A DNA stretch of 64,000 nt from an uncultured Methylomirabilota bacterium (GTDB lineage Bacteria > Methylomirabilota > Methylomirabilia > Methylomirabilales > 2-02-FULL-66-22), in contig CAWJSJ010000002.1 in the NCBI GenBank assembly GCA_963845565.1, positions 576,001 through 640,000 on the forward strand, read 5' to 3'. The position numbers and the translations under genes are program-made. Shown here piece by piece: positions 28,247 to 35,725 of this stretch. A model generated the notes under the pieces. That model saw only the letters and a list, made by a program, of their open reading frames with translations, had not been told where the DNA came from and ran no database searches. The first letter of the stretch is position 1, and every line of letters begins with the position of its first letter.

Positions 28247-28332
28247 GGAGGGGTGGCCGAGTGGTCGAAGGCGTCCCGCTTGAAACGGGATGACCGAAAG
28301 GTCCGTGGGTTCGAATCCTACCCCCTCCGCCA
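28247..28332 (+). tRNA. tRNA-Ser(TGA)
   Basis: GGAGGGG acceptor stem; anticodon arm TCCCG-CT-TGA-AA-CGGGA; long variable arm; GTTCGAATCC; GCCA end. Confidence 0.95.
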
Positions 28333-28425
28333 CACGCGCAGGGAGCGGACGACCACACGGCGGCAAGCGGGTTGATCCAGCTTTGCCGCTCACCAAAAAG
28401 CAGTTGACGGGGTGGCCTGTAAAAC

Positions 28426-28517
28426 GGAGAGGTGGCCGAGCGGCCGAAGGCAACCGCCTGCTAAGCGGTTGGCTGGGTAAAACTGGCCCCCGGGTTCGAA
28501 TCCCGGCCTCTCCGCCA
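28426..28517 (+). tRNA. tRNA-Ser(GCT)
   Basis: Anticodon arm ACCGC-CT-GCT-AA-GCGGT; long variable arm; CCA end. Confidence 0.95.
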
Positions 28518-28630
28518 TCCGCCGGGGCGTTTCCCGGCAGATCAGGCCGAGCAGCAAGCTCTGTTGCGGAGGCGCGACCGCCTCGAGGGCGCGGGTTGCG
28601 CCTTCGATCGCTTTTTGGGCGAGGGGTGCG

Positions 28631-29248
28631 GTGGGTAATTCTGCAGGCGGACCCGTCACGCGACGACTGATCCTACTGGGCGTGGCAGTGGCGATCCCAC
28701 TGGCAGCCGTGGCGCTGTACTTCGCGGTTCTGGTACCGCCCGGTCCGGTCGCCGGGCCGGGCGCGCCGCCGCCGCCGGGGCGGGCCGGCGCCGCCGCCAA
28801 AGGCCTTCCGGCGGACCACCCGCCGATTGGGGGAGCCGGCACGGGCCCCGCGGCCGATCGCACGCATCCGCAAGTGGGCGGCACGGGTCGCGCGGTGCGG
28901 GTGCCGGACGCGATCCGGGGGAAGTGGCAAGCGGTCAGGCTGCAGATCGAGATCAAGGGCGCCGGCCGCGCGGCGCAGCCGTTGGTCGCGAACCTCGGGA
29001 ACGAGGTTGCGGTGCCCGGAAGTGACCTCACGCTCCGCGCCGACGAGTTTCTGCCGGCGCTGCAGGTGAAGGACAACGAAATCACCTCCTTGTCGAACGA
29101 GCCCAGCAACCCCGCGGCGCTGGTGACGATCACGGAGAAGGGGAAGCAGGTCTTCCACGGCTGGCTCTTCAGCAAGTTTCCGGAGATGCAGCCGTTCGAC
29201 CATCCGACGTATAGAATCACGCTGATTGACGGGGTGCCGAAGCGCTAG
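28631..29248 (+). CDS. DUF2155-like membrane-anchored protein (start uncertain)
   Basis: N-terminal TM, LPADHPPI and C-terminal FHGWLFSKFPEMQPFDHPTYRITL. Confidence 0.7.
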   Translation: MGNSAGGPVTRRLILLGVAVAIPLAAVALYFAVLVPPGPVAGPGAPPPPGRAGAAAKGLPADHPPIGGAGTGPAADRTHPQVGGTGRAVRVPDAIRGKWQAVRLQIEIKGAGRAAQPLVANLGNEVAVPGSDLTLRADEFLPALQVKDNEITSLSNEPSNPAALVTITEKGKQVFHGWLFSKFPEMQPFDHPTYRITLIDGVPKR

Positions 29249-29269
29249 GCGCCCCACGTCGGCGGAGAC

Positions 29270-29360
29270 GGAGAGGTACCGAAGTGGTCGTAACGGGCCC
29301 GCCTCGAAAGCGGGTTGGGGGGCAACTCCCACGTGGGTTCGAATCCCACCCTCTCCGCCA
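29270..29360 (+). tRNA. tRNA-Ser(CGA)
   Basis: Anticodon arm CCCGC-CT-CGA-AA-GCGGG; long variable arm; CCA end. Confidence 0.95.
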
Positions 29361-29438
29361 CGAACGCGAGCACGCCCAAAGGGGCGCGGCGGGTCCGCCC
29401 GAGGGTATCGTTCCGCGATGACGCTCCGGCTGGAATGC

Positions 29439-29528
29439 GGAGAGGTGTCCGAGTGGTTGAAGGAGCACGCCTGGAGAGCGTGTGTGGGGGTAACTCCACC
29501 CCGGGTTCGAATCCCGGCCTCTCCGCCA
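29439..29528 (+). tRNA. tRNA-Ser(GGA)
   Basis: Anticodon arm CACGC-CT-GGA-GA-GCGTG; long variable arm; CCA end. Confidence 0.95.
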
Positions 29529-33220: not shown

Positions 33221-33814
33221 GTGTCCTTCATCAATTACGCGGCTCGGGAGATCAACTGCAAGCTGGTGTACTACGGACCCGGCCTGTGTGGGAAGACCAC
33301 CAATCTCCAGCAGATCTACGCCCGCATCGAGCCCACCGCCAAGGGAAAGCTGATTTCCCTGTCCACCGAGACGGAGCGGACACTCTTCTTCGACTTCCTG
33401 CCCTTGGATCTCGGAAACATCCGGGGGTTCAAGACGCGCTTTCATCTGTACACCGTGCCGGGGCAGGTGTTCTACGATGCCAGCCGCAAGCTCATCCTCA
33501 AGGGGGCCGACGGCGTGGTGTTCGTGGCAGACTCCCAGATCGAGCGGATGGAATCCAACCTCGAGAGCTGGGAGAATCTGGAAGGGAATCTGAGCGAACA
33601 GGGCCAGACGCTGAGAACCGTGCCCCATGTCATCCAGTACAACAAGCGCGACCTGCCCAACGTCGTCCCGCTGGACGAAATGCAAGCCGCGCTCAACGAA
33701 CACAACGCCCCCTGGCTCGAGGCCTGCGCGGTCAAGGGGGTCGGCGTGTTCGAAACGCTGAAGGCCTCTGCCAAGCTGGTCCTGACCGACCTCAAAAAGA
33801 AGATGGGGGGCTGA
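33221..33814 (+). CDS. mglA: small Ras-like GTPase MglA
   Basis: GTG start; SFINYAAREINCKLVYYGPGLCGKTTNL, TETERTLFFDFLP, TVPGQV and NKRD. Confidence 0.96.
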   Translation: MSFINYAAREINCKLVYYGPGLCGKTTNLQQIYARIEPTAKGKLISLSTETERTLFFDFLPLDLGNIRGFKTRFHLYTVPGQVFYDASRKLILKGADGVVFVADSQIERMESNLESWENLEGNLSEQGQTLRTVPHVIQYNKRDLPNVVPLDEMQAALNEHNAPWLEACAVKGVGVFETLKASAKLVLTDLKKKMGG

Positions 33815-33846
33815 TTCGGCCGGGGGACCCGGCCCGCGTATCCGAC

Positions 33847-33875
33847 TTGCAGGAGCGGCCGCCTGTTGTTATAAT
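33847..33875 (+). promoter_or_regulatory. sigma70-type promoter of the tRNA-Asn locus
   Basis: TTGCAG-N17-TATAAT followed by the GC-rich discriminator GCGCCGCC. Confidence 0.8.
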
Positions 33876-33894
33876 GCGCCGCCTCAGGGAGTAT

Positions 33895-33961
33895 TCCCCG
33901 GTAGCTCAATGGTGCCCACCCACCCGAACAGCCCCGGCGGGTCGGGCGGGGAGCGAGCGGC
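33895..33961 (+). pseudogene. 5' half-copy of tRNA-Asn (first 31 nt) with a 36-nt hairpin insertion at 33915-33950
   Basis: TCCCCGGTAGCTCAATGGTG + insert + GAGCGAGCGGC is identical to 34210-34240 once the insert is removed. Confidence 0.9.
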
Positions 33962-33968
33962 CGAAGAG

Positions 33969-34253
33969 ATGGGGCGGACCGTATACATTCTCGAGAATCT
34001 GAATGGCTCGCACTACATCGGGATGTCAGAAAACGTCCCGCGGCGCCTGAGGGAACACAAAGCGGGGCAAGTGAAATCCACCAAATCCGGACGTCCGTGG
34101 GTCATTCTTCTTGAGGAGCGGATTGGAGGCCGGAAAGAAGCGCGGGTTCGCGAGCGCTACTGGAAATCCGGCGCAGGGAGGAGAATCCTAGCAAAGATCC
34201 ATTCGAGTTTCCCCGGTAGCTCAATGGTGGAGCGAGCGGCTGTTAACCGCTAG
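33969..34253 (+). CDS. small GIY-YIG nuclease (94 aa)
   Basis: TVYIL...HYIGMSENVPRRLREH...STK...PW...EARVRERYWKSGAGR. The TAG stop lies inside tRNA-Asn. Confidence 0.9.
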   Translation: MGRTVYILENLNGSHYIGMSENVPRRLREHKAGQVKSTKSGRPWVILLEERIGGRKEARVRERYWKSGAGRRILAKIHSSFPGSSMVERAAVNR

Positions 34254-34284
34254 GTTGTAGGTTCGAGTCCTACCCGGGGAGCCA
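34210..34284 (+). tRNA. tRNA-Asn(GTT)
   Basis: Anticodon arm AGCGG-CT-GTT-AA-CCGCT; GTTCGAGTCC; acceptor TCCCCGG/CCGGGGA; GCCA end. Confidence 0.96.
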
Positions 34285-34371
34285 TTGATAGACGCGGCTG
34301 CGGCCCACGTGACAACAAGTTGCGTGGGCCGTGGTATTTGGGGGCCGATACGGTCGCGCGTTTGCAACGTG

Positions 34372-34878
34372 TCACGCCGGCGTCCGGCCCTGCGCCGCGT
34401 TCGCCTTCGCCCGGTGGACCTTGCTGCGGGCCGTGCCCGACTGGAAACAGGGCTGGCAATACTCTCGCTTGCGCTCCCGCCAGAACCACGCCCCGCAGTG
34501 CCGACAGCGGCGCAGGCGGTCGCCTCGGGCTTCCAAGAGCTGCAGCAGGCCCTGATCCTGCGCCCTCGCGTCTCGGAACCGTTCGACCGTCAGCCCTCCT
34601 GCCGCGGGCGACACCCTCGCCACCACCGGACAGCGAATCGCGAGGCCCTTGTGGAAGAGCCGCAGCACCCGCCGGTGAAAGGCCTGCGTCTCCCGCTCCC
34701 GGTCCACGGTTGGCAGGGCGGCCCATTCGGTCCCGCTCAGGGGCCGACTGAAGGCCAGCGTTCGCGTGAGCCCCGCCAGGATCTCCCCGCCTGCCCCGAC
34801 TGGCTGTTGCAGCAGCCAGCACACCGCTAGCGCTTGCCCCTTGTGGATCGCCAACTGCTGCCTCGCCCTGGTCTGCAT
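34372..34878 (-). CDS. hypothetical protein with a C-terminal CGNR-like zinc finger
   Basis: RLRRCRHCGAWF...REYCQPC followed by a basic tail. Confidence 0.55.
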   Translation of the reverse strand: MQTRARQQLAIHKGQALAVCWLLQQPVGAGGEILAGLTRTLAFSRPLSGTEWAALPTVDRERETQAFHRRVLRLFHKGLAIRCPVVARVSPAAGGLTVERFRDARAQDQGLLQLLEARGDRLRRCRHCGAWFWRERKREYCQPCFQSGTARSKVHRAKANAAQGRTPA

Positions 34879-35725
34879 CACGATAGGATAGCATTGATCG
34901 TTGTATCGTCGCAAGGGGCGATGCGAAGAGGCGAGGCAACTGTAGAGAAACAGGCTGACTGCAGGTGGTCCTCGAATCTTCCGGTGTGGTCATCCGATGA
35001 ACGAACGCACGGACGGCAGATGGAAATACGGACGGTGCGTTGCGGGCAGTCGCCGGGAGCGCCGGTTCCCGAAGGCCAACCTTGAACGCAAGCAGGTACG
35101 GGGCGGTCGACAAAACCGCCTCTGCGTTTCTCCGTTTCACGAGACGGGTAGCGACCAGAGCGATCACCGAGGTAGATTCAAGACCTCAGAGTTCGTCTCC
35201 GCCGTGAATTGATGCATTGTGGATGGACTGAGGGTGAACAGGGGTGGTCACGATAGATGTGAAGACATGATTATATCGTCACCGCAACGACGCGACAACC
35301 CCTCGTCACTATTGGCCGAACGGAAAGTACCGGACACCTCTTGATGCGTAAGTCGTGGATTTCCTTGTAGCGACAATCAGACTCTTCTCGCGCGAAGCCA
35401 GGAGAATGATCCGGCCCATCGTAACCGAAGGATGGCTGATCAGTGTCGGCGCGTCCGCAGGGACTCCGAGCGTGCTGTCCAAAGAAGTCCGACTGGGGCG
35501 CCGTAATGGAGTGTTGCCTTCGTGAACGTATCTGATACCTCTCTGTGGACGCGTTGGGCCTCCAGATTCGCCGGACGCTACTGGACTCGCCGGGAAACGA
35601 CGGACGGCGCCCCGGGGACCGGCGCGGTTCGGGGCCAACGCGGGCTGAGTGTAAGTGAAGGAGCGCAGCACCGTAAGCCGTTGTCAAAGAATGGCTTGAC
35701 CGGAGAAATTCCGGAAACGGCATAA

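Follow-up and report, generated by a model that had tools for sequence, protein, structure and literature searches.

In this study, we have shown that a 64,000-nt stretch of the genome of an uncultured Methylomirabilota bacterium (here, the window) carries, directly ahead of its tRNA-Asn gene, a 315-bp unit (33895-34209) composed of a broken copy of the 5' end of that tRNA, a 36-nt hairpin lodged in the copy, and a small GIY-YIG nuclease gene. The cassette is real, and its anatomy as given in a preliminary description was partly wrong. It is probably selfish. The reading that we favor, with somewhat better than even confidence, is that of a tRNA-lodged selfish cassette consisting of the nuclease, its cognate hairpin, and a tRNA 5' arm, which would act on folded single-stranded DNA and move by means of host recombination; we infer both this activity and this mobility from comparisons among related loci.

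The genes at the locus follow the order recR, mglB-like gene, mglA-like gene, promoter, tRNA copy, nuclease, and tRNA-Asn (Table 1). The mglA-like gene, called mglA in the preliminary description, sits after an mglB-like Roadblock gene, and its translation is conserved among relatives. The exact copy of the first 31 nt of the tRNA described previously matches over 20 nt, after which come the 36-nt hairpin and then nt 21-31, the hairpin having been spliced out of that account; the insertion was placed at the anticodon loop, and the conserved feature, the hairpin at the 3' edge of the D-loop, was missed. The leader repeat noted at the same time is probably due to chance, since most homologs differ at the downstream GAGTT, which codes for nuclease residues 79-80. 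Other elements of the preliminary description are confirmed: the open reading frame encodes 94 aa followed by TAG; codons 81-94 and the stop lie within a complete tRNA-Asn gene; the tRNA starts are 315 bp apart, as estimated; and the use of the host promoter and the regeneration of an intact tRNA both follow from the anatomy. A 7-nt spacer (CGAAGAG) separates the tRNA copy from the nuclease ATG. The tRNA-Asn gene is the sole one called by ARAGORN in the 6 contigs of the host genome (G000). Neither terminal inverted repeats nor a target-site duplication was found around the unit, which is bounded by direct repeats of tRNA sequence.

Table 1. Features of the tRNA-Asn locus, in window positions
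Feature	Position	Strand	Basis or remark
mglA-like small GTPase gene	33221..33814	+	NCBIfam small_GTP domain, E 5.5e-5, below cut-off; host flank and marker
Host tRNA-Asn promoter	33847..33875	+	Weak -35, 17-nt spacer, extended -10 (TG-N-TATAAT); read from sequence
Exact copy of tRNA-Asn nt 1-20 (left direct repeat)	33895..33914	+	Sequence comparison
36-nt GC-rich hairpin at 3' edge of D-loop	33915..33950	+	Directly 5' of GAGC D-stem strand; without target duplication
Copy of tRNA-Asn nt 21-31	33951..33961	+	Extends to nt 33 in L031, L048, and L051
94-aa single-domain GIY-YIG nuclease gene, Slx1/UPF0213 type	33969..34253	+	Pfam, invariant residues, predicted fold, sequence neighbors
Intact tRNA-Asn(GTT), CCA encoded	34210..34284	+	nt 1-20 form the right direct repeat
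19-bp inverted repeat 3' of tRNA, terminator-like, host side	34299..34341	+	Similar stem behind the tRNA in empty L004

The promoter proposed at first (TTGCAG-17-TATAAT) stands with respect to its -10 element, a perfect TATAAT at 33870-33875 that is extended by TG at 33867-68; its -35 element (33847-52) matches at only 3 of 6 positions, and a consensus scan reported no promoters at the locus. Empty relatives show the identical promoter layout ahead of the tRNA; therefore, the promoter is assigned to the host.

The duplication is not an artefact of assembly, as contigs from independent runs span the locus. When the contigs of four sequencing runs (X1, X5, X9, and X15) were compared with it, X5 yielded a single 620-nt contig across 33638-34257 with 1 difference, and X9 yielded two contigs (33633-34060 and 34071-34257) that cover nearly the whole unit. 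Run X1 gave no contig cover over the nuclease gene; two X1 joints that skip the cassette were set aside, their sides being 20-24 nt long and probably from other organisms. The RNA run X15 contains a 299-nt contig (33914-34212) whose end lies 3 nt inside the tRNA, a point beyond which the DNA contigs continue; it was rejected as a sign of transcription or processing because it comes from one study, as contigs only, in which DNA may be present. A protein identical to the window nuclease occurs in 3 metagenome loci within the best 80 of 257 matches, any of which could be the window's own source.

Ten close homologs share one design: tRNA nt 1-20, the 36-nt hairpin (10/10), nt 21-31 or 33, a short purine-rich spacer, the gene, and a tRNA start, with the ATG 7-20 nt 3' of the tRNA copy. 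These homologs group as a single nuclease clade (support, 100/98, from 9 tree rows), always with tRNA-Asn and this hairpin. Inside that clade lies a Brocadiaceae contig (L032) from a second phylum, Planctomycetota, which carries the same cassette at 65-68% identity; the tRNA start was matched in 9 of 16 genomes of its order, and the 8 others show a single plain tRNA copy, two of which share the first 45 nt of the window tRNA. In L032, L047, and L050, the hairpin loop itself encloses a second palindrome, and L031, L049, L050, and L051 contain further dead tRNA copies. Another nuclease clade (support, 100/99; identity, 31-40%) holds the same tRNA-Asn site, and there the dead copy bears a different, short palindrome within its anticodon arm. 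This clade was found in five genomes (L124, L130, L134, L146, and L151), four of them in the tree; the L151 gene appears to be frameshifted.

Several other arrangements were observed at tRNA-Asn. Small GIY-YIG genes of other clades lie approximately 70-290 nt behind it in L125, L140, L142, L143, L147, L042, and L045. An inverted copy of the last 15-16 nt of the tRNA, including the complement of CCA, ends 14-15 nt before the intact gene in 6 of the 15 loci tested (L009, L124, L014, L006, L049, and L050), is partial (12 nt) in L146 and L030, and is absent in the window; it resembles a primer-binding site. L006 and L009/L031 also have a long imperfect inverted repeat of short tandem units between the promoter and the first tRNA copy.

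The hairpin is probably the cis partner of the nuclease. The window copy has drifted from the consensus at 2 positions and folds no better than shuffles of an equally GC-rich string (z -0.8). It occurs once in G000, and a dispersed hairpin repeat in the host was therefore dismissed. A strict hairpin pattern matched 4 of the 66 genomes of the order, in 3 of them at the tRNA-Asn site; a loose pattern was uninformative, since the control matched at a comparable level. The hairpin termini were also found in 20 of 401 genomes of Patescibacteria, the phylum of G252/L033 (control, 0), most of these hairpins being 35-36 nt long. Inspection of these 20 loci, one per genome and with the junctions read by eye, revealed a tRNA within 400 nt in 13, a GIY-YIG gene within 160 nt in 4, and no nuclease match nearby in 16. 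In 7 of the 20, a partial tRNA copy holds the hairpin immediately 5' of its GAGC D-stem strand, just as in the window. The whole design is repeated at tRNA-Ile and tRNA-Asp in L269 and L276, and in L061 and L064 the hairpin sits in the T-loop of a 3' tRNA-Arg copy, behind a related nuclease. No target duplication was seen around the hairpin in the window or at the Patescibacteria loci. With regard to a viral vehicle, 8 viral matches to the hairpin were obtained, and none of the 8 had a tRNA or a nuclease. Separately, members of the hairpin family overlap long open frames (343-657 aa) with no nearby tRNA in L266, L270, and L277, which suggests in-frame insertion in genes.

The association with tRNAs extends beyond tRNA-Asn. 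We gathered 90 nuclease loci, the metagenome part being the best 80 of 257 matches (79 distinct); 89 of the 90 had a usable match, 65 were distinct at 90% identity, and 42 of these had 300 nt on both sides. Because the genome set and the metagenome set overlap, their counts are not additive. Within this sample, with its metagenome part limited to those best 80 matches, a same-strand tRNA lies within 300 nt in 38 of the 42 distinct homologs and an opposite-strand tRNA in 2, compared to a background of 8 tRNAs in 84,559 nt lying more than 1 kb away; when six close homologs are left out, 32 of 36 still adjoin a same-strand tRNA. The expectation that homologs adjoin tRNAs is thereby borne out. Among the 32 distant tRNA-adjacent homologs (metagenome part again from the best 80 of 257), 14 repeat 18 nt or more of the tRNA across the gene, as the 5' part upstream in 6 and as the 3' part downstream in 8; in the other 18, the exact tRNA copy across the gene is shorter than 18 nt. 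The chain test that detected these copies was run without a dedicated null; for shuffled tRNAs, scores in local alignments did not exceed 30. From 16 loci, 19 inserts were chosen, and 16 of them, read by eye and not independent of one another, map within the D, anticodon, or T loop or to its edge. At one locus (L064:1600-3000), a unit of tRNA-Arg, nuclease, and 3' tRNA copy occurs twice in tandem, with hairpins stacked and nested in the T-loop.

Occupation of the site varies among relatives. The tRNA was matched 51 times in the order; 47 matches were examined, and the 46 with upstream DNA were counted, leaving out two unpublished genomes, which no claim uses, one match without upstream DNA, and the second G012 copy. 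Empty alleles with the promoter directly before the tRNA, which the preliminary description had proposed to look for, account for 34 of the 46 loci; 7 have the nuclease with a 5' copy, and 5 have the copy alone, so that all 7 nucleases upstream of tRNA-Asn come with the copy. By host family, the 5' copy was present in 8 of 15 loci in f1, 3 of 12 in f4, and 1 of 1 in f2 and in none of 18 in f3, f5, and f7 together. In the empty alleles, the leader passes straight into tRNA nt 1, and close pairs exist: occupied L048 and empty L005 have an mglA dS of 0.10 and share 140 of 150 upstream nt, and occupied L047 and empty L029 share 100 of 104. The arrangement is therefore not fixed. On a 20-row mglA tree, the six carriers need 6 state changes, and their placement in one clade was rejected (AU p 2e-93); these changes indicate turnover, in which gain and loss look alike. 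At L046, the end of recR lies directly ahead of the tRNA promoter; hence, mglB and mglA are missing from this place.

Such turnover is also what would be seen if the insertion were old, inherited vertically, and often lost, the nuclease being kept for a host role in repair or defense under the strong tRNA promoter while the copy and the hairpin persist as scars. Recombination between the 20-nt repeats would yield exact empty alleles in this case too, and the purifying selection on the nuclease (median dN/dS, 0.17; range, 0.07-0.52; 36 of 45 pairs of close homologs with estimable dS) would fit a host role as well; the L045 gene has an in-frame stop. The dS values of nuclease and mglA agree in L043 (0.21 and 0.33), L045 (0.71 and 0.81), and L048 (0.59 and 0.77), which fits inheritance with loss, and the nuclease DNA tree is too poorly resolved (support, 32/57) to reject vertical descent within the host family. 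We nevertheless regard vertical descent as unlikely. The same cassette is present in Planctomycetota, one site is held by two unrelated nuclease clades, homologs are found at tRNAs of 12 amino acids (metagenome part, the best 80 of 257 matches), and the hairpin is better preserved than would be expected of a scar. In addition, the L047 nuclease differs from three f1-type loci by a dS of 0.37-0.43, versus an mglA dS of 0.86-1.33 when L029 serves as the proxy host, and the L047 promoter matches family f4; L050 was left out of the mglA comparison. A formal proof of transfer for L047 was precluded by the resolution of the nuclease tree.

By its sequence, the nuclease belongs to the GIY-YIG superfamily: PF01541 matches with 45.4 bits (cut-off, 22.6; E 1e-11), and Y6, Y16, G18, R26, H30, and E62 are shared by all 15 aligned sequences, the Arg and the His being catalytic residues. 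Its minimal domain is closest to the stand-alone Slx1-like/UPF0213 type. Among proteins of solved structure, UPF0213 members and Slx1 come nearest (BH0048 and EF2693, with E 7e-8 and 1e-7), and the nearest atlas clusters are unnamed GIY-YIG families. The predicted model (pLDDT 83.7) is confident through residue 80 and falls below 50 at residues 84-94, such that the tRNA-coded tail appears disordered; since the predicted folded core comprises residues 1-80, a message cut at the tRNA start would still encode the whole domain. A longer, 114-aa form from the ATG at 33909 is in frame in just 6 of 10 close homologs, and the start was therefore taken as 33969. The protein family comprises 3,106 representatives at E up to 1e-10.

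Membership in this superfamily is compatible with a classical free-standing homing endonuclease such as SegB of phage T4, which would cut the duplex of an empty tRNA allele and have the cassette copied in by gene conversion. SegB, which spreads its own gene, recognizes a motif in the tRNA T-arm (PMC2330249), phage segB genes show enrichment close to tRNAs (PMC13096335), and empty alleles do exist here. However, the homing interpretation raised in the preliminary description fits poorly and seems to us improbable. With a full tRNA gene retained in the occupied allele, any target within the tRNA would survive the insertion, and since the leaders differ among hosts, a target at the junction would not be common to them. 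Two traits of the lineage of I-TevI and SegB, a separate DNA-binding region and a C-terminal Asn, are also lacking: no DNA-binding domain was found in the 94-aa protein, and no conserved Asn follows E62 among the 15 aligned sequences, a residue proposed to be specific to the UvrC/homing lineage (PMC1564403). Among fold neighbors, UPF0213 and Slx1 hold ranks 1-13 and I-TevI appears at rank 19, and TIGR01453 reaches 21.8 bits against a cut-off of 56.

Genomic islands that integrate at tRNA genes leave a direct repeat of a tRNA end and restore the tRNA. The unit could be the remnant of such an island, with the repeats as attL and attR and the nuclease as leftover cargo; direct repeats of a tRNA end flank it in the same way, and its structure equals the product of a single crossover within tRNA nt 1-20. 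This origin is very improbable in our judgment. As noted previously, the unit holds no integrase, no transposase, and no intron core, its 315 bp containing the nuclease reading frame only, and the 5' end is the one duplicated, in a repeat broken by a hairpin. Moreover, ten homologs repeat the same compact unit with the ATG close behind the tRNA copy, the promoter-to-tRNA sequences examined are too short for an integrase, and a mirror arrangement, in which a 3' copy follows the gene, is present at 8 loci (metagenome part, the best 80 of 257 matches). Least credible of all is an RNA-level device, either a D-loop intron or a tRNA-attacking toxin with a tRNA-mimicking message: the first copy (nt 1-20) and the second (nt 21-75) would together form a tRNA with a 315-nt D-loop insert, and one RNA run (X15) has a cassette contig, but the complete tRNA needs no splicing, Rfam (E up to 1) finds no group I or II intron family and shows the tRNA plus one weak match far under its gathering score, and SsnA is without action on RNA in the cited part of PMC11893778.

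We thus return to the tRNA-lodged selfish cassette. In its favor are the patchy occupation of the site, the recurrence of the cassette with its hairpin in a second phylum, the purifying selection on the nuclease, the adjacency of homologs to tRNAs, the hairpin termini in Patescibacteria, and the precedent of SsnA. Counting against it are the single hairpin copy of G000, the drift and ordinary fold of that copy, the 16 Patescibacteria loci without a nuclease nearby, the 18 distant homologs with short tRNA copies, the L045 stop, the dS agreement at three loci, and the viral matches that had neither tRNA nor nuclease. The following course can be envisioned. The nuclease would nick single-stranded, hairpin-folded DNA, either its own hairpin or the tRNA cloverleaf, in the manner of Ssn and Slx1 and not as a duplex cutter; if it cuts only folded single strands, the intact tRNA gene behind it would be tolerated. 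The cut end and the tRNA 5' arm would then allow host recombination to join the cassette to a recipient tRNA gene without an integrase, giving rise to promoter, dead copy, nuclease, and intact tRNA. The hairpin may also have moved alone, as a non-autonomous element, killing the spare tRNA copy and leaving no more than 20 nt of perfect repeat. An exact empty allele would be restored when the two repeats recombine.

Expression may be limited by the same architecture. RNase P cleaves tRNA transcripts, and tmRNA tags the products of non-stop messages; the host genome encodes a tmRNA. The tRNA promoter would drive the gene, and an RNase P cut at 34210 would leave a non-stop message, with tmRNA tagging for degradation and a low dose of nuclease. 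Truncation of the nuclease message by RNase P is a reasonable inference for the window; it is not general, because in 4 of the 10 close homologs (L031, L049, L050, and L051) the gene ends 5' of the intact tRNA, in or near a second dead copy. More tentatively, and with clearly less confidence than for the window itself, we postulate a separate class of transposase-free mobile elements, in which Slx1-type nucleases of approximately 80 residues would cut folded tRNA genes and mobilize 300-bp cassettes and 20- to 36-nt hairpins across phyla, each clade having its own hairpin and tRNA site and its dose being capped by tRNA maturation and tmRNA.

By analogy, the cassette, which is of the Slx1/UPF0213 type, may work like Ssn and not like a classical homing endonuclease. 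SsnA is a 94-aa GIY-YIG protein that binds a hairpin in single-stranded DNA and cuts beside it, and its authors likened the Ssn layout, with its NTS/SRM hairpins, to an insertion sequence (PMC11893778; Chenal et al. 2025). Here, too, a single-domain GIY-YIG protein of 94 aa, within the size of Ssn (cd10448; approximately 90-100 aa, the likeness being drawn from the description of that family), is encoded beside a short hairpin, and the catalytic positions Y6, Y17, and E64 of SsnA correspond to Y6, Y16, and E62. The two systems differ in that Ssn has hundreds of hairpins, whereas the window has one, inside a tRNA copy; the degenerate SRM motif, as given in PMC11893778, had no match on either strand within 500 nt, and the word "tRNA" does not occur in the main text of that paper.

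SegB, like the window nuclease, is a GIY-YIG protein in a tRNA setting: it has been linked to tRNA gene amplification in phage T6, with its gene among tRNA genes (PMC2330249, PMC13096335, and PMC2988022). Unlike SegB, which cuts duplex phage DNA, the window nuclease is an Slx1-type single domain on a cellular chromosome, accompanied by a partial tRNA duplication and a hairpin, and a PHROGs search returned no family for it. The stand-alone Slx1-like/UPF0213 proteins BH0048 and EF2693 have the same minimal domain and are its best matches in sequence and fold; the cited passages of PMC1564403 mention neither a location at tRNA genes nor a hairpin or a duplication in their case. REP and RPE palindromes with their REP-associated transposases are likewise short palindromes, inserted with no coding gene of their own and paired with a small nuclease (PMC3733652). 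Their partners, however, are tyrosine transposases, "GIY-YIG" does not occur in PMC3733652, and the hairpin described here favors tRNA loops.

A literature search that covered few subscription journals, and no supplements, found no description of such a nuclease-hairpin-tRNA cassette. What is new is a variant that joins the known nuclease-hairpin and nuclease-at-tRNA systems. If the proposed reading is correct, the cassette would be among the smallest autonomous mobile units in bacteria, would provide a function for part of a very large unexplained protein family, and would explain the broken tRNA copies and short palindromes of uncultured lineages. It also makes the movement of 20- to 40-nt palindromes without a transposase testable, and this locus suits such a test because it offers the nuclease, the hairpin, the target, close empty alleles, and hairpin-only alleles together. 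The Ssn set of tools for single-stranded DNA could, in addition, be widened by a new nuclease-hairpin pair.

Two further features of the window were recorded. On the minus strand, a 180-aa open reading frame at 34372-34914 has no Pfam match, and its DNA is also present in L002. At 28247-29528, all four tRNA-Ser genes of the window lie in two pairs directly behind a gene that is presumably serS.
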